A DNA stretch of 51,262 bases from Coriobacteriia bacterium (lineage in GTDB: Bacteria > Actinomycetota > Coriobacteriia > Anaerosomatales > PALSA-660): contig JANYKZ010000077.1 of assembly GCA_025361505.1 (NCBI GenBank), positions 1-51,262 on the forward strand, written 5' to 3'. A program made the translations under genes and the position numbers. Each line of letters starts with the position of its first letter. Positions within the stretch are counted from its first letter, which is position 1. Below, piece by piece: positions 24,693-42,152 of this stretch. The notes under the pieces were generated by a model. That model did not search any database. It was given only the letters and a program-made list of their open reading frames with translations, and had not been told where the DNA came from.

Positions 24693-25787
24693 TCAGGGCG
24701 CGAGGGGCACGGAGAACCCCACGATCGCTCCTCCGTCGTGGTTGCGCGCAAACACGGTGCCACCGTGATCCTCGACGATCCGGCGTGAGACGGCGAGCCC
24801 TATGCCGCTGCCGCCCGTGTCGCGTGCCCGCGCCGTGTCCGCGCGGTAGAAGCGTTCGAACACGAACGGAAGGTCGGCCTCAGGGATCCCCTCGCCGCTG
24901 TCCACGACCTCCACGATCGCGCGCTCGTCCGATCGTTGGCATCTCACCAGGATCGTGCCCGCATCGGTGTGGCGAAGCGCGTTGTCGACGAGGTTGCGCA
25001 GCACCTGAGCGAGGCGGCCTTCATCTCCGATCACGGCGAGCGCCTCGGAGCACTCCGCCGCGACCTCCACGTCGGCGCCCGCGCGTGCCCGGGCACGCGT
25101 GACTTCCGCGTCGATGATCGGGGCCACCAGGAGGCGCTCCATCCGGTAGGTCAACCGTCCCGCATCGGCCGCCGACAGTTCCTGAAGATCGTCGACGAGA
25201 CGCGAGAGGTGCTGCGTGTCCTCCACGAGCGAGGTCAGGCGTTTCGGGTCAGGGGCTAGAACGCCCTCGGCGATCCCTTCCGCCTGCGCTCGGAGCGACG
25301 CGACCGGGTTGCGCAGTTCGTGGGCTACGTCGGCCACGAGCCTGCGCCTCAGCCCCTCGGACCGGGCAAGCGACACGGCCATCGCGTTGAACGCCTCCCC
25401 GAGCCGGCTGACCTCGAGGGGACCGCCGGTATCGACACGGTACGTCAGGTCGCCGGCAGCGACCTGCTTCGCAGCCGACGTGAGACGCTTGAGGGGACGT
25501 GTGAGGTAGTAGGCGCCTGCGGCCGCGACCACCCCCGCGAGTCCGATCGCCAGCAGCGCGCCGAGAAGGATGCCCCTGTCGACCGCCGCGAGGAACGCCT
25601 GTTCCGGCACACCCATCATGCCGCCGGCGCCCATCATGCCGCGCCCCATGCCGACGGGCAGAGTCTGCAGGTAGGCGCCGAACGCGGACGAGATCTCCGC
25701 GCGCGTGAATATCCCGGCGATGCCGACGGACAGCAACGCCACGACGACCATCGCGAGGAACGCGTACACCAGAAGAGAACGCTTCAC
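24693..25787 (-). CDS. Membrane sensor histidine kinase (HAMP; BaeS/CopS-like)
   Basis: Two TM helices with a Met-rich loop, [31 protein letters not shown]. Confidence 0.93.
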
Positions 25788-29474: not shown

Positions 29475-30536
29475 CTACCGCGACTCCGTCGCGTCGACCA
29501 CGACCAAGCTGCCGGACATCATGCCCATGCCGCATGTCATCGTGTAGGTGCCGGCCTTCATCGGCGGCACGAGCACGGCGGTGACTCCGTTGGCCGTGAG
29601 GTTCGCGAGCACCCCGGCACCAGGGATGCTGAGCTGAGAAGAGCACGCCACGTCCTCGCGGCGGTCGACGGAGAGGCGCACCTGAGTGCCCGCCGGGATG
29701 GTCACCCTGTCCGGGACGTAGGTCGTATTCTCGATCACGAGCGGTACCTCGACGACGCCGTCGGGGCCCGTCTTGAACCCCGCAAGGTTCGGTACGACCG
29801 CTCCGCCGACGACCGCTGTCCGAACGCTGTCGAACGTCACCGGCGAGCCCACGAGCATCAAGCCGCGGTCGAGGATGATCAGACCGAAGACCACGACGGC
29901 GACGGCCGCCACGATCTGCAACCTCGCCTGGAACCGGCGCGACAGCAGCGACGAAGCGAACCCGAAGACCAGCATCAGCGGCATCGTCCCGAGCCCGAAA
30001 CCCACCATCGCCCACGCTCCGAGCAGCGGCGAGCCGCTCTGCACCGCGCGCAGCTGCGCTGCGATCAAAGGAGCGCACGGCATCAGCCCCGTGAGCAACC
30101 CGAAGATGATCGGCGTTGCGAGCGACACGTGTCCCTCCGCGGCATCGGCCGTCGCCTTCCTCCGCTCGCTGGACAGCGCCCTGACCAGGAACCTCGGAGG
30201 GCGAGGCGTCAGATACCGGAGGGCCCTGACCCTCCCGGTCATCGAGACGCCCAGCAAGACCATGTACACGCCCGCCGCGACCATGAGCCAGTTGCGGAAC
30301 GGTGTGATGTCCACAGCGCGCCCCGCCAGCGCGACGAGCCCGCCGAGGATCAGCGCCACCGCAGCGTAGCTGAGCACCTTGGAACCTTGGTACGCAAGGT
30401 GTGGCAGGAGCCGCCGGTACCACGGACCGTCCTCGGTGCCCTTCACCGCATAGGTCAGAACGAGCCCGCCGCACATGAAGATGCAGTGGACTCCTGTCGC
30501 CAGGCCGAGCAGGAACATCGTCAGGAACAGATCCAC
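29475..30536 (-). CDS. DsbD_2/TauE-like membrane protein fused to a C-terminal cupredoxin domain
   Basis: HCIFMCGG, GLMPC, FGLGTMP; C-terminal AC...TCGMGM. Confidence 0.9.
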   Translation of the reverse strand: MDLFLTMFLLGLATGVHCIFMCGGLVLTYAVKGTEDGPWYRRLLPHLAYQGSKVLSYAAVALILGGLVALAGRAVDITPFRNWLMVAAGVYMVLLGVSMTGRVRALRYLTPRPPRFLVRALSSERRKATADAAEGHVSLATPIIFGLLTGLMPCAPLIAAQLRAVQSGSPLLGAWAMVGFGLGTMPLMLVFGFASSLLSRRFQARLQIVAAVAVVVFGLIILDRGLMLVGSPVTFDSVRTAVVGGAVVPNLAGFKTGPDGVVEVPLVIENTTYVPDRVTIPAGTQVRLSVDRREDVACSSQLSIPGAGVLANLTANGVTAVLVPPMKAGTYTMTCGMGMMSGSLVVVDATESR

Positions 30537-30698
30537 GCCGCAGACCCTCCCGCATCGTCGCCGCACGCGTCGCGTGAACGCGCCGCCATCATCATGCCTC
30601 ATCCGCCTGCGGGGGGACGTACGATACGAGGGGCGACCCTGACGAGGCTGTTGGCACCGCACTTGCGACAGCAGGGGTCCTGGCGATCGGGAGACGTG

Positions 30699-31406
30699 AT
30701 GAACAAGAGGGTACTGATCTGGCTCGCAGTGATCGCCATCTTCGGCGCGCTGCTGCTCGCCGTGACGACGCCCGCCGCGGCGGTGCTGAAGAAGGTCGAC
30801 GGCTCGGAGCTCACCCAACTGCAGGACTCCGGCGCCATGGTCGTCGACGTTCGCTCCGCGAGCGAGTACGCGTCGGGCCACATACCGGGAGCGTCCAACG
30901 TGCCGCTGGAGCAGTTGCAGCAGGCCGCGGCCACGTGGAGCAAGGACCGGGCGGTCGTGGTCTACTGCGCGACCGGCGCCCGCTCCGCGAACGCGGCGGC
31001 CTACCTCGCGGGCCAGGGGTTCAGGAAGGTGTACGACCTCACGAACGGGATGGTCGCGTGGACCGGGTCCGTCCAGGGAGGCGCGGGCGGGGTGCCGTCG
31101 GGACCCGGTACGGTGAAGACGAGCGGCAAGCCGGTCTTCATCGACTTCTCCTCCAGCACTTGACCCACCTGCATAGAGATGAAGCCTCTGGTCGAGAGGC
31201 TCGCGCAGGAGTACAAGGGCAAGATCGAGTTCCGCCGCTATGTCGACAGCGGGGATCCCGTGGGCGATCAGTTGGCGCAGACGTTCAACGTCCAGTACGT
31301 TCCGACGTTCGCGTTCGTGGATTCCGACGGCAGCCTGTCGGGGCAACTGCTCGTGGGCGGCGTCACCGAGGACGTGCTGCGGGCGCGACTCGACGTTCTC
31401 AAGTAG
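30699..31406 (+). CDS. Exported or membrane-anchored rhodanese-thioredoxin fusion selenoprotein (Sec at TGA 31161-31163, UPTC motif)
   Basis: N-terminal signal/TM; rhodanese (VDVR, GHIPGA, CATGARS); thioredoxin FIDFSSST-[TGA]-PTC continuing in frame to VQYVPTF; SECIS-like hairpin downstream. Confidence 0.88.
31161..31201 (+). promoter_or_regulatory. Bacterial SECIS element
   Basis: AGCCTCT-GGTCG-AGAGGCT 7-bp stem; the G-initiated loop starts 26 nt after the UGA. Confidence 0.8.
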
Positions 31407-34710: not shown

Positions 34711-37704
34711 CTAGGCGGCCTTCGAGAAGCTGGGCTTGAACCGGCGCAGCAGCAGCGAGCTGCTCACGACGCTAACGCTGGAGAGCGCCATGGCGGCGCC
34801 GGCCAGTTCCGGCCGGAGGAGCCCCAGCGCGGCGATCGGGATGCCGAGCGTGTTGTAGCCGAGCGCCCAGAAGAAGTTCTGGTAGATCTTGCGCATGGTG
34901 GCGCGGGACAGCTCGATCGCGGTCACCACGTCGCGCAGGTCGTTCTTGATGAGGACGATGCCGCCGGTCTCCATGGCGACGTCCGTGCCGCCGCCCATGG
35001 CGATGCCGACGTCGGCCTTCGCAAGCGCCGGCGTGTCGTTGATGCCGTCTCCGACCATGGCGACGACGAGTCCCTTTGCCTGGAGCTTGCCGACCTCTTC
35101 GGCCTTGTTCTCCGGGAGCACCTCGGCGAGGACGTTCTCGGGCCTGATGCCGGCCTGCGAGGCGATGGCCTCGGCGGTGCGGCGGTTGTCGCCCGTGATC
35201 ATGTACACGGCCACGCCCATCTTGGTGAGCCGCTCCACCGCTTCCTTGGAGTTGTCCTTCAGCGTGTCCGCCACGGCGATGAGGCCGGCGGCCTGTCCGT
35301 CGATCGCAGTGAGCATGACCGTCTTGCCCTCGGACTCGAGGCGCTCGATGCGGACCGCGAACTCGGCGATGTCGACGCCTTCACGCTCCATGAGCCTGCG
35401 GTTGCCCAGCGCGACGCGCCGGCCTTCGACGATGCCCTCGACTCCGTGACCGGGAACGGCCTCGAAGCCGGTGACGTCGCCGAGCACGAGTCCGTTCTCG
35501 TTGGCGTAGTTGACGATCGCCTCGGCCAGCGGATGTTCGCTGCTTCTCTCCAGCGCGGCCGCGAGCCGGTAGAACTCCATGCGGTCGAACGACCCGAACG
35601 GACCGAACTCCGTCACCACGGGCTTGCCGTAGGTCAGCGTGCCGGTCTTGTCGAACACGATCGCCTTGATCTTGTAGGCGGTCTCAAGGGCGTCACCGCT
35701 CTTGATGAGGATGCCGTTCTCGGCGCCCTTGCCGGTACCGACCATGATGGCCGTCGGCGTGGCGAGCCCGAGCGCGCAGGGGCAGGCGATGACGATGACC
35801 GCGGTCCCGGCGAGCAGCGCCTTCACGAACGGCGTGGCGAACGCGTAGAACGAGGCGTCAACGAAGCCCGGCACGACGAACAGCCAGATGAAGAAGGTCG
35901 CCAGAGCGATGGTGATGACGGCCGGTACGAACACGGCCGAGATCCGGTCGGCGAAGCGCTGCACGGGCGCCTTGGAGCCCTGAGCGTCCTCCACGAGACG
36001 GACGATCTGCGCCAGTGCGGTGTCCTTGCCGACCTTGGTGGCGCGGAACCTGAGCGAGCCGAGCTTGTTCATCGTCGCGCCGATGACCGAGTCACCGACG
36101 TTCTTCTCGACCGGCATGGACTCGCCGGTGAGCATCGACTCGTCGATGCTGCTGCGTCCTTCGACGACGAGGCCGTCGACCGGGACCTTCTCACCGGGGC
36201 GGACCACGACGACGTCGCCGGCCACGACCTGCTCGACCGGGATGTCGAGCTCGACGCCGCCGCGCACGACGCGCGCCGTCTTGGCGGCAAGGCCCATGAG
36301 CTTCTTGATGGCGTCCGAGGTCTTGCCCTTCGCGCGCGCCTCGAGCAGCTTGCCCAGGATGACGAAGGTGATGAGCAGCCCGGCGGTCTCGAAGAAGACC
36401 GGCTCGGCCTGCAGCGACGGGATGAACGTCGCGGCCACGCTGTAGAAGTACGCCGCCGACGTGCCGATGGCGATGAGCGTGTCCATGTTGCCGCTGCGGC
36501 GCTTGAGCGCGTGCCAGAAGCCGCGGTAGAACTGCGCGCCCGCGATGAACTGGACCGGCGTGATCAGGGCGAAGGCCATGTACTTGAGGACCATCATCGG
36601 GTCCCAGGCGCCGCCGAACGTGCTGGCGAGCCAGGTGGCCACGGCGGCCGGCACCACGGTCATGAACGGCGGCACCATGGAGATGAGGAACGCCGGCAAC
36701 GCCAGCAGCAGCGAGAACATGAAGAGCCACTGCTGGTGCTTGGTGTGCTTCGCCTGCGCGACGCGCTGGGCGTCCTCCGCGGGGGCGTCGGCGGACGTGC
36801 CGGTCTCCACGCGGAGCATCGCCTCGTAGCCGGCGCCCTTCACCGCGCCGATGAGGGTGTCCAGGCCGACGACGGCCGGGTCGAACGTCACCGTGGCGGT
36901 CTCCAGCGCGAGGTTCACGGAGGCCGACTGCACTCCGGTCACCTTGTTGAGCGTCTTCTCGATCACGGCGGAACAGGAGGAGCAGGTCATCCCGACAAGA
37001 CCGAGCGTGACCGTGCCCATCGGCGAGCCCTTACCGGATGACGCGGTGGCCGTGGTCACGGCCGGTGCCGCAGCGGGCACGGGGGCGTCGAGCGGTATGG
37101 CGCCGTAGCCGGCCTTCTTGACCGCCTCGGCGATGCGGACCTCGTCGGTGACCGACGGATCCAGCTTGACCGACATCCTCTCGGTCGCGAGATTGACCGT
37201 GACGGCCTGGACGCCGGCGACCTTGCCGACGACCTTCTCGATCACGGCGGAGCACGACGCGCAGGTCATCCCCGTGACGGCGAACGATGCGTCGCGGACC
37301 GCCGAAGCGGCGCCGGACGGTGCGGCAGGCGCGGCGGGAACCATCACGGCGACGGGCTCGGCCACGACCGGGCAGGCTGCGGGCGCTATCGCGGGGCCCG
37401 AGGCGACCCCGACCAGGGGACTCGCGGCGATCGCGACTCCCTCAGGGACGAAGCCGCAGGCCACGATGACGCGGGCGATGTCCACGTCGGTGAGGACGGC
37501 GGGATCCGCGAGGACGGACACCATTCCGGTCCGTGCATCCGCGGACACGGCGCCGACGCCGGGCTGGCGTCCGAGCGCCTCGACGAGCAGGTTCTCGCAC
37601 GAGCGGCAATCCATGCCGTCGACCCTGAGCCGGCGGAGCACCGGCCCTCGTGATGTCGCGATCTCGGGCTCCGTGCGGGAGCCTGTGAATTCGGTCGTTT
37701 CCAT
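34711..37704 (-). CDS. copA: Cu(I)-translocating P1B-1 ATPase with three HMA domains (paralog)
   Basis: GMDCRSC, GMTCASC, GMTCSSC, CPC, DKTGT, GDGIND, YN, MALSS; SD AGAGGAG. Confidence 0.95.
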
Positions 37705-37711
37705 GGCTCCT

Positions 37712-38308
37712 CTACTCTGCCGTGATGCTGCCATGCACCATGTGCATGCCGCAGCTGAAGGGGTAGACGCCGGGCTCGAGCGCGGGGATGGTGACGACCG
37801 CGCCGCCGTGGGTGAGGTCAGCCTCGATGCCGAGGCCCTCGAACACGACGGTCGCCAGACAACCGCTGCCCTCCGAGAACGTGATCTCGAGCGGGATGCC
37901 CGCGGCGACCACGATGTCGGACGGGTCGTAGTCGTCCGTGACCTCGATACGGACGCGCTGTGACAGCGAAGTCTCGACCGGGACGCGGACCGGGACGCGC
38001 GGGGGCTCCGGAGCCTCCAGCGCCACGGTCTCGGCCAGCGTGAGCGGGATCCGCTCGGTGAGCCGCTCGAACGGGGTGGCCACCACGGACTCCGGCGCGA
38101 ACCCGGCGGTGACGACCGCCTTCACGATGTCTTCGTACAGGTCGGTGTCGGCCGAAGCGAGCGCGATGAGCGTCCCCTCGTTGTTGACCGCGACGATCTC
38201 GACGCCGTCGATGTCGCGCACGAGCATGGTCGCCAGCGTCTCGCCGGACCGACAGGCTCCTTGGCCGAGCGCCACGCGGTAGACATCTTTGATGACTCCG
38301 TTTGCCAT
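37712..38308 (-). CDS. Degenerate HMA-like domain plus cupredoxin domain protein
   Basis: N-terminal ACRSG...AGF; C-terminal [18 protein letters not shown]. Confidence 0.8.
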
Positions 38309-38319
38309 GGTGTCTGCCT

Positions 38320-38901
38320 CTACTTCACGACTATGGAGCCGGACTGCATGTTCATCCCGCAGGCGAAGCCGTAGGTGCCCGCCTTGAGCGCGCCGAGCTT
38401 GATGGTCTTCGGGCCGCCGGTGAGATCCTCGGAGAACCCGAGGTCCTGCGACTGGACCTGTGAGAGGCATCCGGACGACTGCGTGAAGGTGATCTCAGCG
38501 GGGACCCCTGCCTTCAGCTGGATCGTCGCGGGGTTGTAGTAACCCTTGGTGGTGTCGACCGTGATCTTCTGCACGCCGGCGGCGATCGCGGCAGCCACCG
38601 TCTTCTGGGAACCCGCAGGCGCGCCGGCACCGCCGCCGCAGCAGCCGCCGCCTCCGGCGACGGGAGTCGCGGCTCCACCGCCGCAACAGCCGCCGCGACC
38701 GGCGGCGGGAGCGGCCGTTCCGGTGCCCCCGGCCAGCGGGGTACCCGTTGCTGACGCCGCGGACGCCGCGGACGCCGATGTCGTGGTGCTCGCCACCGCG
38801 AACCGGTACGAGGCGAAGAAGGCAAGTGCGGCGAACCCGACGATCACGGTCCAGCGAAGCGCCCTGTTCGAGTCGCCCGCGGTCTTCGTTGAGATGCTCA
38901 T
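38320..38901 (-). CDS. Membrane-anchored cupredoxin domain protein with GGCCGGG linker motifs
   Basis: SD AAAGGA; TM; two GGCCGGG; YNPATI, GC, FACGMNM. Confidence 0.85.
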   Translation of the reverse strand: MSISTKTAGDSNRALRWTVIVGFAALAFFASYRFAVASTTTSASAASAASATGTPLAGGTGTAAPAAGRGGCCGGGAATPVAGGGGCCGGGAGAPAGSQKTVAAAIAAGVQKITVDTTKGYYNPATIQLKAGVPAEITFTQSSGCLSQVQSQDLGFSEDLTGGPKTIKLGALKAGTYGFACGMNMQSGSIVVK

Positions 38902-38953: not shown

Positions 38954-40333
38954 CTAGTGGAAGAAGCCTCCGGATGCGAGGCCGATGACGATGGCGAGGC
39001 CGATCAGCGACGCGGCGATGCCGAGCTCCAGGGGCCGGAAGCCCCAGAGAGCGGGAGCGTGCGAGTCCGCGACGGACGGGCGTCCGGACGGCGAGCCGTC
39101 GCGCGTCGCGCCCTTCTTGCCGGACTTCGAGCGCCTCGCTTCTGCAGCCGCCTGTGCCGCTGCCGCCTCACGGCGGAGCCGGCTCGAGCGCACGCTGTGA
39201 GCGGAGAAGCCTCCTCCGACGAGCGCGACGGACCCGAGCGCGAGCAGCCATGGCGAACCGCCTCCGCTGCCGCCTCCGGACGCGCCGCCGGCGACGAGGC
39301 TGCCGGAGATCATGCCCATGCCGCACGTCAGCGTGTACGTTCCGGCCTTCGTGGCGGGGATGTCCACGACGGTCACCGCGTTGTCAGCCAGGTTCTTGAG
39401 GATCCCGAGCTGCGGGAGCGCCAGCTGCGCGGAGCACGCGTTCGCTTCCTTGCGGTCGACGATCAGCCGTACGGGCTTGTCCGCCGGGATCGAGACGGTC
39501 GCAGGGATATACGTGGCGTTCTGGATGGTCATGGGGATCTCGACCACACCGTCCGCGCCCGTCTTGTACTGCGTGCCCGACGGAGTCTGCGCAACGGAGG
39601 TGCCGACGACCGCGGCGCGGACGGTGTCGAACGTCACGGGCGAGCCGACGACCATCAGGCCGCGGTTGAGGATGACGATGCCGAAGATCATGACCGCGAC
39701 CGCGGCGACGACCTGCAGCCTCGCCTGGAACTGGCGCGAAAGCAGCGAGGACGCGAAGCCGAAGACCAGCATCAGCGGCATCGTACCCAGGCCGAAGCCG
39801 ACCATCGCCCAGGCGCCCAGCAGAGGTGAGCCGGTCGCCATGGCGGATGCCTGAGCGGCGATCAACGGAGCGCACGGCATCAGGCCCGTGAGCAGGCCGA
39901 AGCTGATCGGGGTCGCCAGTGACGTGTGCCCTTCGGCGGCGTCGGCGCTCGCCTTCCTGCGCTCGCTCGACAGCGCCTTGACGAGGAACTTCGGCGGGCG
40001 CGGCGTGAGGTAGCGCAGGACTTTGACCTTGCCGGTCATCCCGATGCCGAGCAGCACCATGTAGACGCCGGCGACCACCATCAGCCAGTTGCGGAACGGC
40101 GTGATGTCGACGGCGCGACCGAGCAGCGCGACGACGCCTCCGAGAGCGAGGGCAACGACCGCGTAGCTCAGTATCTTGGAGCCCTGATACGCGAGATGCG
40201 GGACGAGCCGCCGGTACCAGGGTCCGTCCTCGGTACCCTTGACGGCGTAGGTCAGCACGAGCCCGCCGCACATGAAGATGCAGTGGATGCTCGTCACCAG
40301 ACCGACGGCGAACAGGGACAGGAACAGATTCAC
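38954..40333 (-). CDS. DsbD_2/TauE-like membrane protein plus cupredoxin and extra C-terminal TM helices
   Basis: HCIFMCGG, GLMPC, TCGMGM; GTG start with SD GAGAGG. Confidence 0.9.
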   Translation of the reverse strand: MNLFLSLFAVGLVTSIHCIFMCGGLVLTYAVKGTEDGPWYRRLVPHLAYQGSKILSYAVVALALGGVVALLGRAVDITPFRNWLMVVAGVYMVLLGIGMTGKVKVLRYLTPRPPKFLVKALSSERRKASADAAEGHTSLATPISFGLLTGLMPCAPLIAAQASAMATGSPLLGAWAMVGFGLGTMPLMLVFGFASSLLSRQFQARLQVVAAVAVMIFGIVILNRGLMVVGSPVTFDTVRAAVVGTSVAQTPSGTQYKTGADGVVEIPMTIQNATYIPATVSIPADKPVRLIVDRKEANACSAQLALPQLGILKNLADNAVTVVDIPATKAGTYTLTCGMGMISGSLVAGGASGGGSGGGSPWLLALGSVALVGGGFSAHSVRSSRLRREAAAAQAAAEARRSKSGKKGATRDGSPSGRPSVADSHAPALWGFRPLELGIAASLIGLAIVIGLASGGFFH

Positions 40334-40342
40334 TTAGGGGAG

Positions 40343-40471
40343 CCTCTCATCCGTTGCGATCCACCCGCACGCAGGAGCGCGATGGGCGGAGCGGACTCCG
40401 GGGTGTCACGTGACACTCCGGGTGCGCGAAGACGGCCGCGGCGAAGCGGCGTCACGCGCTCAGATGAGAGG
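40343..40471 (-). promoter_or_regulatory. Anti-SD/SD sequestering leader structure
   Basis: CCTCTCATCTG (40471-40461) can pair with CGGATGAGAGG (40353-40343); internal hairpin at 40398-40421. Confidence 0.65.
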
Positions 40472-40473
40472 GA

Positions 40474-40833
40474 TCAGAGGCGGAGTACCGCGGTGAGGTG
40501 GGGCGCCCCACGAGCATCGGCGGCGAGGGCACCCGGGTGCGCCCGGCCGACAAGACTCGTCGCCGGGATGGGCGTCACCTGGACCGCGGCCATGAACGTG
40601 GCGTGGCCACTCTCCGTGGGCGTCGCATCACGCGGCTGCGCCTGCGCGGTGTGGTCACACGAGGAGTGCTGCATCGTCTGTCCACTGTCCATCGGACAGG
40701 AGACGGACGCCGTCGGCGCGCAGATCATGACGTCCCCGCACGCGGAACCGACGCACACGCTCGCGAACGCCGTTCCCGCCGTCATGGCGAGAACGAGCAG
40801 TGCGATCGTGACGATGGCGACGAACCGCTTCAT
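40474..40833 (-). CDS. Secreted Cys/His/Met-rich small protein, candidate metal-responsive leader (CutF/CruR-like)
   Basis: SD GAGGAGGGGT; signal peptide ending AFA; five Cys; C-terminus DARGAPHLTAVLRL. Confidence 0.75.
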   Translation of the reverse strand: MKRFVAIVTIALLVLAMTAGTAFASVCVGSACGDVMICAPTASVSCPMDSGQTMQHSSCDHTAQAQPRDATPTESGHATFMAAVQVTPIPATSLVGRAHPGALAADARGAPHLTAVLRL

Positions 40834-40889
40834 ACCCCTCCTCGGGTGGCTACGCGCCGAGCATACCGCAAGGTTCGTGCCAGTCCCTG

Positions 40890-42152
40890 CTAGAAACCGC
40901 ACCTATCTGACGAATCCGGTCCGCACATCTCCTCGGAGGGGCGGTTGTACTCCAGCGCGCGCGCAAGCCGGTAGAAATCGGACCGTTTGTCGATGAAGCG
41001 GACCTTCGGCCGCAGGGTCTCCGGATCGATCAGCTCGTCGAACGGGACGTACACGAGCTGGAGCTGGTCGCACACCGACACCATGTGACCGCTCAGACTC
41101 TCACGCACCAGCGCGCGGAACGCGCCGACGCCGAGCTGGCTCCCCAGAAGGATGTCGAAGGCGACCGGGTCGGCGCAGCGCGCCTCGTAGCCGATCTGCT
41201 TGCTCCTGACGCGGATCGGACTCCCCGTGCGCCGTTCCCACACCTGTTCCATCGTCTTGGCGAGGAACGCCCCGACGTGCGCGGAGCCCAGCAGCGAGTA
41301 GCCGCGCTCGTCGACCGCGCCGCCGTCGACGTCGCCCGGGAGCCGCGAAGCCAGCCCCTCGGCCACACAGACGATCCCGTACGGCTTCCCGCGCGCCGCG
41401 CGCCCGGCCATGAGCTCGACGAGCTCCCCTGCCAGGGCCTCGATGTCGAGCGTCTCGCCGGCGTCCTCCACCGAGATCATGCGCGTGGCCTCGCCGGCGA
41501 TCCCGGCGGCGTAGGTGAGCCAGCCGGCCTGACGTCCCATGAGCTCGAGGACGTACCAGGTCGAGGTCGACTGGGCGTCGGCGCCGAGGTTGCGTATCTC
41601 CTTCGCGGCGAAGTCCACGGCCGACGCGAAGCCGAAGGTCCAGTCGATGCCGAAGTAGTCGTTGTCGATGGTCTTCGGCAGGTGCACGACGGCGATGGAG
41701 CGCCTGCCCGGAACGAGTCTCCCGAACCGGTGGAGGTGGTTCGCGGTGCGCAGCGTCTCATCGCCGCCGATGGACACCAGTGCGTCCACCCCCAGCGACT
41801 CGAGCGCCGCGTGCACGGTCGCGATCGCCCCGTTGCGCGCGGGATCGAGAAGGTCGGCGTCTCCCAAGATGTCCTGGCTCGGGTTGGCGTGCGAGGTTCG
41901 CAGCAGGATGCTCTTGCGGTTGCGGATGCCCGACACGTCGGAGACGTGCAGCTCGAGGTAGTCGGTCCCCGCAACGAGCGGGCGCTCGGGCGTGTAGGCC
42001 TGCAGGCGCTCGTAGCCGTCAAGGATCCCGACGACGTCGATCCCCGCATCGAGGAACTGCAGCGCGCATGCGGAGATGACGGCGTTGGTCGCGGGCGCGG
42101 GGCCCCCGGAGAAGACGATGGCGACACGACGGATCGCAGCGGACGGGCTCAT
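40890..42152 (-). CDS. 6-phosphofructokinase family (PfkA; possibly PPi-dependent)
   Basis: SGGPAP, IGGDET, PKTIDND, ELMGR, AEG, GYEAR. Confidence 0.9.
   Translation of the reverse strand: MSPSAAIRRVAIVFSGGPAPATNAVISACALQFLDAGIDVVGILDGYERLQAYTPERPLVAGTDYLELHVSDVSGIRNRKSILLRTSHANPSQDILGDADLLDPARNGAIATVHAALESLGVDALVSIGGDETLRTANHLHRFGRLVPGRRSIAVVHLPKTIDNDYFGIDWTFGFASAVDFAAKEIRNLGADAQSTSTWYVLELMGRQAGWLTYAAGIAGEATRMISVEDAGETLDIEALAGELVELMAGRAARGKPYGIVCVAEGLASRLPGDVDGGAVDERGYSLLGSAHVGAFLAKTMEQVWERRTGSPIRVRSKQIGYEARCADPVAFDILLGSQLGVGAFRALVRESLSGHMVSVCDQLQLVYVPFDELIDPETLRPKVRFIDKRSDFYRLARALEYNRPSEEMCGPDSSDRCGF

Follow-up and report, generated by a model that had tools for sequence, protein, structure and literature searches.

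A copper operon of an uncultured Coriobacteriia bacterium is headed by the gene of a predicted exported, Cys-rich peptide and by a folded RNA that hides the first operon gene's Shine-Dalgarno sequence (SD), an organization that resembles known copper-sensing leader peptides. The system lies in a DNA stretch of 51,262 nucleotides (nt), analysed as a whole (contig JANYKZ010000077.1 of assembly GCA_025361505.1, positions 1 to 51,262; "the window" below), where the leader open reading frame (ORF), the RNA leader and the operon are all found on the minus strand; window coordinates refer to this strand unless another one is given. Both parts of the leader, ORF and RNA, differ from those of the known copper-sensing leaders and are so far undescribed. 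Unmasking of the SD by translation of the ORF is well supported in silico. The invariant tail of the peptide, its spacer of fixed length and its predicted exported Cys cluster match the design of CruR and CutF, and for this reason the reading favoured here is that of a co-translational copper sensor acting through the nascent chain and SD unmasking, whose chances of being correct we judge to be even.

The leader ORF and its product

The leader ORF (40474–40833) extends over 119 codons from an ATG at 40833 to a UGA stop codon at 40476–40474 and is preceded by the SD GAGGAGG (40843–40837). A longer frame of 142 amino acids (aa) starting at GTG 40902 was rejected as the form of the gene because it is not the conserved one. 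The end of a phosphofructokinase gene is found immediately upstream. The original prediction, made from the DNA letters, described a 119-aa product with a signal peptide, a defined Cys pattern, the motif HSSCDH and a characteristic carboxyl terminus. These features match the sequence and belong to a family of 103 homologous protein clusters, identified among 8000 candidates scored, which are all unnamed or annotated as "hypothetical"; no Pfam domain is found in any of the 103 clusters. A library of 1.84 billion proteins holds 35 family representatives at E values up to 0.001.

The amino terminus of the product reads MKRF...AFA|SVC and features a predicted Sec-type signal peptide (codons 1–24, 40762–40833) with an MKRF start, a hydrophobic core and AFA followed by S, a call that is our own reading of the sequence and of its conservation profile rather than the output of a predictor. 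It is followed by a cluster of Cys, Met and His residues (codons 27–61, 40651–40755) that would bind metal and comprises C27, C32, C38, C46-P-M and C59-x-H61, spaced as C27-x4-C32-x5-C38-x7-C46(PM) and then H56-S-S-C59-D-H61. In the protein alignment (93 members of 110–131 aa; 10 shorter or longer ones were excluded) C27 and C59 are conserved in 100% of the sequences, C32 in 99%, C46 in 96% and C38 in 92%. The cluster is separated from the carboxyl terminus by a linker (codons 62–105, 40519–40650) whose sequence is unconserved (column entropy of ~3 bits) while its length is conserved, the columns being almost gap-free. The distance from the last conserved Cys (C59) to D106 is 45–48 residues in 75 of the 103 proteins; the remaining 28 carry extra Cys residues in the linker, which confound a simple distance count.

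The carboxyl terminus, DARGAPHL-x-x-V-x-R-x (codons 106–119, 40477–40518; DARGAPHLTAVLRL in the product studied here), is near-invariant in the aligned members and is the candidate nascent-chain effector. ARGAP, the penultimate Arg and a length of exactly 8 residues after the Pro are found in 103/103 proteins, and DARGAPH in 101/103; the conservation of RGAP among orthologues, put forward as a check by the original prediction, is thereby complete among these 103. Each of the invariant carboxyl-terminal residues is encoded by 2–4 synonymous codons among 20 loci (four Arg and four Gly codons, for example), which indicates that selection acts on the peptide and not on the RNA. The ORF stop codon is UGA in 19/20 loci and UAA in the other one. 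The AF2 model of the product (39-row alignment; mean pLDDT 58) is confident only for the helix of the signal peptide (residues 2–28), while the mature part has a pLDDT of ~45–59 and no predicted fold. Prediction of a complex between the mature product (residues 25–119) and the protein coded by the first operon gene, which carries a DsbD_2 and a cupredoxin domain, gave a score of 0.00, which is evidence neither way.

The family is small and lineage-restricted. The leader ORF is present in 6 of 41 related genomes, all from one genus, namely the source genome (G000) and 5 of 9 others, as well as in 5 of 113 pattern-matching stretches of a species collection and in 15 metagenome loci. In every related locus long enough to reach it, the gene following the leader codes for the DsbD_2-cupredoxin protein.

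The leader RNA and masking of the SD

According to the original prediction, the bases found two positions after the ORF stop codon form 11 pairs, including one G-U, with a segment that contains the first gene's SD; the sequence and the folding confirmed this. The 5' strand of this helix P1 (the anti-SD, CCUCUCAUCUG, 40461–40471) begins 2 nt (UC) past the stop codon, and its 3' strand (CGGAUGAGAGG, 40343–40353) contains the SD GAGAGG (40348–40343), which sits 9 nt before the GUG start codon at 40333; 107 nt separate the two arms. In the minimum-energy fold of 40320–40500 (-85.9 kcal/mol, z = -5.45, none of 200 shuffles being as stable) the anti-SD/SD helix closes three hairpins. Inverted repeats of 9–11 nt are common in the GC-rich DNA around the leader (16 pairs in 621 nt), yet the same helix recurs in 19/20 independent folds and is therefore more than chance. 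These folds were obtained from 20 distinct loci (L025 was dropped as identical here to L003, and L009–L013 are the same contigs as L002–L006) whose leaders have a length of 140–152 nt. Folded locus by locus, 19 of the 20 leaders form a P1 of 9–15 pairs that starts 1–3 nt past the stop codon and pairs at least 4 of the 5 SD-core bases, and all 20 enclose three hairpins.

Alignment of the 20 leaders by MAFFT followed by RNAalifold gave only 6 pairs, the variable hairpins being misaligned, and was replaced by the single-sequence folds and by a covariance model seeded on 3 sequences. This model recovers 19/20 leaders at E values up to 0.001. In its alignment 89.4% of the cells pair, compared to 72.5% in shuffles (0/500 reach the observed value) and 35–44% in slid controls, and 37 of 50 pairs are changed on both sides versus 21.6 in shuffles. 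Changes on both sides are found in 12/13 pairs of hairpin P2 (40424–40459; helices 2–3 of the alignment), in 7/11 pairs of P3 (40395–40423), which is built on the near-palindrome GGAGUGUCAC/GUGACACCCC, and in 14/15 pairs of P4 (40357–40393; helices 5–6), which follows the conserved junction GUCCG. P1 (helix 1) has 90% of its cells paired and double changes in 4/11 pairs, a low variation that is expected because one of its strands is the SD; the anti-SD/SD helix, for which covariation had also been proposed as a check, is hence kept with some compensatory changes. A role of the P3 near-palindrome as a DNA operator was considered and rejected since its sequence varies between loci while pairing is kept, and P3 therefore behaves as an RNA stem. 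Covariation over the full length of the leader implies a single transcript for anti-SD and SD, which speaks against a transcription start downstream of the anti-SD.

Two further properties of this region were observed. The junction GUCCG-C-UUCC (40385–40394), located between P3 and P4, is near-invariant though unpaired in the consensus, and once P1 opens, pairing between its GUCCG and the CGGAU in the 3' strand of P1 would be possible. The anti-SD is present as a near-tandem at 40461–40481, formed by CCUCUGAUC (last codons and stop) and CCUCUCAUC; either copy is a complement of the SD strand (as inverted repeats I5 and I10), so that a second register overlapping the stop codon exists.

The conservation of GUCCG-C-UUCC and of C-N-CAAC beyond the needs of pairing suits an alternative in which sensing is done by the four-way junction, as a riboswitch or as an RNA bound by a protein, and its ligand or protein partner shifts the stability of P1, the ORF being a mere neighbour that supplies the 5' strand. 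The fixed three-hairpin architecture, the narrow range of leader lengths and a fold far more stable than its shuffles are in line with such a role. The 15th release of Rfam yielded no match, however (no covariance model at E values up to 10 in 40200–41000), and the RNA is never seen apart from the ORF. A second covariance model, built from 19 leaders and run on 121 genomes of the order, found the leader RNA in six genomes, the same six that carry the ORF, in one copy each adjoining the ORF, and in 0/115 other genomes. The start of P1 at 1–3 nt past the stop codon in 19/20 loci points instead to a terminating ribosome, and a ligand that stabilizes P1 would turn a detoxification operon off. We consider the junction as sole sensor unlikely.

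Ribosome position and the proposed mechanism

Ribosome occupancy was modelled in two runs by barring the covered bases from pairing, 12–13 nt being blocked in addition to the stop codon. In the free mRNA the SD core is unpaired with a median probability of 0.005 in the first run and 0.06 in the second. This probability reaches 0.52 and 0.38, respectively, with the stop codon in the A site, and only 0.02 with the Pro codon of RGAP in the A site, a position that was modelled in the second run. This Pro codon lies 27 nt before the stop codon, and P1 begins after the latter. In these models the SD is freed only by a ribosome on the stop codon and not by one stalled at RGA|P. The original proposal that a ribosome paused at the ORF end would cover the anti-SD thus stands for the stop codon and falls for RGA|P. 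As the SD remains closed while the Pro codon occupies the A site, occlusion by a classical RGA|P arrest cannot be the decisive pause. It follows from folds and sequence that translation of the first gene depends on ribosomes reaching the end of the ORF and dwelling there.

The mechanism that we propose would start at a sigma-54-type promoter, with a transcript beginning ~25 nt before the 119-codon ORF. The ORF would yield an exported and otherwise disordered peptide composed of a Cys/Met/His cluster, a spacer of ~48 residues and the invariant 14-residue carboxyl terminus. In the 140-nt four-way-junction RNA that follows, the closing helix would join the bases located after the stop codon to the SD ahead of the first operon gene, keeping this SD closed unless a ribosome sits on the last codons or on the stop codon of the ORF. 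Synthesis of the DsbD_2-cupredoxin protein would then be set by the number of ribosomes that complete the ORF and by their dwell time at its end. This step is most likely under the control of the invariant carboxyl terminus, acting within the ribosome as part of the nascent chain, and is most likely made dependent on copper outside the cytoplasm by the exported Cys cluster at its constant distance, in the manner of CruR and CutF.

All that the modelling demands of the ribosome is that it reaches the stop codon, an event by which any ribosome would unmask the SD, with no need for arrest. This is the substance of plain translational coupling. In this view the ORF product, a secreted peptide or chaperone that binds copper, would be a functional partner of the DsbD_2-cupredoxin protein, and P1 would merely link the synthesis of the two; the carboxyl terminus would be a tag for docking, sorting or degradation rather than a ribosome effector, and translation would involve no sensing. 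The conservation of the 8 residues after the Pro as protein would suit a function of the finished chain, the proteome shows no specific depletion of RGAP (see below), and the ORF is always accompanied by the same downstream gene. Coupling of this kind leaves other features without a role. The mature part of the product has no predicted fold, and its 44-residue linker is fixed in length and not in sequence, which is a signature also reported of CruR and is unusual for a folded partner. The 140-nt covarying junction exceeds the needs of simple coupling, and a paralogous DsbD_2-cupredoxin gene of the window lacks both ORF and leader. Simple coupling is a possible account, and one that we regard as less likely than the sensor.

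If the leader is a co-translational sensor, its control could operate in two ways. In the first, RGA|P arrest would keep ribosomes off the stop codon (OFF state) and copper-induced folding or pulling of the nascent chain would relieve it (ON state), that is, the logic of CruR with a different output and with a sign that would be right for a detoxification operon. In the second, the full 14-residue chain would slow termination at UGA and so prolong exposure of the SD; conservation of the 8 residues that follow the Pro would be accounted for if ribosomes paused at termination while the tunnel contains all 14 residues of the tail. A two-step arrest peptide combining both can also be envisaged, in which copper would relieve the RGAP arrest and slow termination at UGA would then hold the ribosome on the anti-SD, while the four-way junction would serve as a second input (ligand or protein) that sets the re-closing of P1. 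Copper outside the cytoplasm, a signal inside it and activation through sigma-54 would all converge on such a leader; this is a speculative elaboration with a low probability.

The RGAP motif and the weight of the contrary evidence

The published R-x-x-P arrest cores comprise RAGP (SecM), RAPP (ApdA/ApdP), RGPP and RAPG (ApcA), to which RGSP of MsSecM is added. RGSP is the natural core nearest to RGAP, whose Arg and Pro are invariant in the family (103/103) and whose third residue is Ala. RGAP agrees with RAPP/RGPP in its Arg and Pro and is itself absent from the published cores. No carboxyl-terminal PP/PPP or RAPP motif occurs in the 103 proteins. One distant homologue (P0114), whose end reads ...ALGPPPRATVLRI, lacks the Arg of RGAP and carries the polyproline GPPP in place of GAPH, a variant that is only a lead.

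A number of observations weigh against a co-translational copper sensor. Arrest and copper dependence are both properties that we infer from the design of the leader, and in the modelling a ribosome stalled at RGA|P would leave the SD closed. RGAP is not a proven or published arrest core. It has no mention in an EMBO J paper on arrest peptides, and no paper was found that contains both "RGAP" and "translation arrest". In ApcA and ApdA arrest was lost with every replacement of the third-position Pro, and ApdP partly tolerated Gly only, whereas Ala occupies this position here; the existence of the natural cores RAGP and RGSP nonetheless means that a small residue at the third place is not excluded. 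The 8 conserved residues after the Pro are unexplained by a classical RAPP-type arrest. In the proteome of G000, as represented by a crude set of coding sequences (1121 frames), RGAP occurs 13 times versus 22.4 expected (ratio 0.58), and the control tetrapeptides AGAP (0.64), RGAG (0.58) and RAAP (0.48) are depleted alike, hence RGAP is not specifically avoided. P0114 is a single sequence on a single contig, and a search for its relatives returned P0114 alone. At the RNA level, L031 is the sole locus without SD-core pairing in P1 and is also the one missed by the covariance model, and the alignment used for covariation was fitted to this model and hence leans towards the structure, a bias from which the single-sequence folds are free.

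Candidate promoter and probable transcriptional control

A sigma-54-type promoter element, TGGCAC-N5-TTGC (40868–40882), ends 34 nt before the ORF start and is presumably the one in use. The pattern GG[CT]A[CT]-N5-TTG[CT] is found 32–41 nt before the ORF start in 18 of 19 loci; the exception, L032, starts within the ORF, and L028, which is too short upstream, is not among the 19. A scan of 40200–41000 for sigma-70 promoters and terminators found none, such a scan being weak for a high-GC actinobacterium. On another contig of G000 (C108:35037–40900, locus L033) RpoN (483 aa) is encoded in one operon with a PAS histidine kinase of 507 aa and a response regulator of the NtrC type (450 aa). Sigma54_activat gives one strong match across this 1.9-Mb genome, to the regulator (2.2e-72; three others are found at 1e-7 to 7e-5), and a TGGCAC-N5-TTGC site follows the regulator gene closely (C108:40877). 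The same contig carries a CsoR-family gene ~1.2 kb upstream, on the other strand, and three MerR-family genes are found in G000 on contigs other than that of the window. rpoN is present in 4 of the 5 other genomes that carry the leader, the fifth genome being 91% complete.

The conserved promoter element, the operon with rpoN, the PAS histidine kinase and a single true activator, and the presence of a CsoR-family gene are what can be said for regulation that is wholly transcriptional, exerted by sigma-54 with the NtrC-type two-component system and/or by a CsoR-family repressor, the ORF and the helix having no regulatory role. Such a scheme leaves unexplained the invariant tail, the ruler-like linker and the covarying helix that sequesters the SD, and is very improbable as the whole explanation; note that transcriptional control can coexist with the leader mechanism. 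The window holds no CsoR-family or MerR-family gene, in agreement with the original prediction that CsoR and CueR genes are missing from it, the matches in G000 being on other contigs. Because a CsoR-family gene, rpoN and one NtrC-type activator exist elsewhere in the genome, the absence of CsoR and CueR genes from the window does not show that transcriptional control is lacking, and such control probably also exists.

Transcript data came from one metatranscriptome run, in which 6% of the sampled sequence words are present and whose contigs are 85–95% alike to the locus and therefore derive from relatives. A 164-nt contig of this run spans 40303–40466, from the leader into the downstream gene, and is weak support for their cotranscription, as starts and strand are not readable from it and carry-over of DNA is possible.

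Strict TGGCAC-N5-TTGC sites number 7 in the genome, compared to ~3.7 expected from base composition, and 3 of the 7 are in the window. Besides the one described above, a second site (30652–30666, plus strand) lies ~33 nt before the ATG of a gene coding a secreted protein with a rhodanese domain (30699–31163, plus strand; Pfam 9e-22). The third (24748–24762, minus strand) is inside the 3' end of a long ORF that reads like the carboxyl terminus of a histidine kinase and is probably a chance match.

The copper operon

The first operon gene (38954–40333) starts with GUG and codes for a protein of 459 aa with a DsbD_2 membrane domain and a cupredoxin domain (Pfam E values 5.8e-44 and 7.5e-15). The rest of the operon (34711–38901) codes for two Cupredoxin_1 proteins, of 193 aa and of up to 252 aa with an uncertain start, and for a P1B ATPase (CopA) of 1007 aa with HMA domains. 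This gene order is kept in related loci. The 193-aa protein (38320–38901) displays two GGCCGGG stretches after its membrane anchor, that is, paired Cys in a Gly/Ala-rich segment, which may form an extra metal site. The paralogous DsbD_2-cupredoxin gene of the window (29475–30536, minus strand; 353 aa), divergent from the gene of the secreted rhodanese protein, has its own SD (GGGAGGG) and is found without leader ORF or junction RNA.

Significance and relation to known leader peptides

Should the arrest be real, it would widen the alphabet of arrest cores to Ala at the P-site position and provide a natural case in which conserved residues lie past the arrest point and a large structured RNA takes part. 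A monoderm lineage would then be where the design, governed by a sigma-54 promoter, arose or became unrecognizably different. If the arrest is not confirmed, the leader would still be a clean, covariation-backed case of long-range SD sequestration opened by upstream termination.

TnaC and SpeFL are termination-stage arrest peptides that sense small molecules inside the ribosome tunnel and are not exported. They have no sequence likeness to the leader ORF product, for which arrest at termination is conjectural; in both cases the conserved carboxyl-terminal stretch that runs to the stop codon counts ~13–14 residues, which would occupy the upper part of the tunnel once this codon is in the A site.

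The RAPP-like arrest peptides share with the leader an invariant Arg three places before an invariant Pro and the location of the motif near the carboxyl terminus of a small secreted protein, predicted as such in the present case, with a gene on the same strand downstream. They differ in the Ala that occupies the third position here, in the conservation of residues past the motif and in the status of arrest, which is unproven for RGAP. RAPP/RGPP upstream ORFs (uORFs) that precede metal genes in Actinomycetota have already been described, with arrest in vitro for SLIV_16130 of S. lividans, an actinomycete uORF that, like the present one, has conserved Cys/His and lies upstream of a metal gene. 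The original suggestion of an analogous sensor in a Gram-positive lineage was hence partly anticipated.

CutF of Rhodobacter capsulatus, a DUF2946 protein, is, like the leader product as proposed here, an exported, Cys-containing leader protein with a carboxyl-terminal stalling motif, whose mRNA has a structure that shields the SD of the next gene, a copper detoxification gene. It is reported that copper enhances stalling of CutF and that the stem-loop covering the SD melts. The motif of CutF is PPP/proline-rich and is used together with EF-P, and its simple stem-loop lies close to the stall site, in contrast to the leader studied here, whose Pro codon is 27 nt before the stop codon and whose helix starts after it. 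The survey made with CutF required a PP motif within the 15 carboxyl-terminal residues and names Actinomycetota among the phyla with CutF-like proteins; as the published filters demanded PP, RAPP or RGPP, the leader-ORF family would have been missed.

CruR of Bordetella pertussis (Bp2923), also a DUF2946 protein, is reported to be a small uORF with a signal peptide heading a copper-related operon, whose CXXC and RAPP motifs are 45 residues apart, a spacing conserved within 1–2 residues. Copper perceived by the nascent chain relieves ribosome arrest, which was observed in vitro, and an equivalent change is presumed here. Application of the same ruler to the present family, from the Cys motif to the carboxyl-terminal R-x-x-P motif (~45 residues), gave 45–48 residues in 75/103 proteins, with a linker that is unconserved but fixed in length. 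Both systems have a long, GC-rich intergenic region, of 162 nt in CruR. The differences are several. DUF2946 (PF11162) matches none of 39 family members at E values up to 10, has no match in G000 and none over its cut-off in 201 genomes of the phylum; an Atlas cluster with 23% DUF2946 members at a score of 0.93 is only a lead. RGAP replaces RAPP and is followed by 8 conserved residues instead of 3, and five Cys plus CPM and CxH take the place of CXXC, no CXXC or CxxxC motif being conserved in the family (Cys spacing x4, x5, x7, then C-P-M and C-x-H). The output would be unmasking of the SD versus Rho termination, and the target an operon of the efflux/detoxification type versus an uptake receptor. 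A further difference is that the action of CruR is independent of its own signal peptide.

The analogy with CutF and CruR drawn in the original prediction is thus borne out by the ruler between Cys and motif, by the exported-type leader and by the masked SD, and stops short at DUF2946 and at RGAP. CutF and CruR are recent discoveries, and the published surveys were keyed on PP, RAPP, RGPP and DUF2946, none of which is present in the leader-ORF family; the family still reproduces the full design of signal peptide, Cys cluster, fixed spacer, R-x-x-P tail and masked SD.

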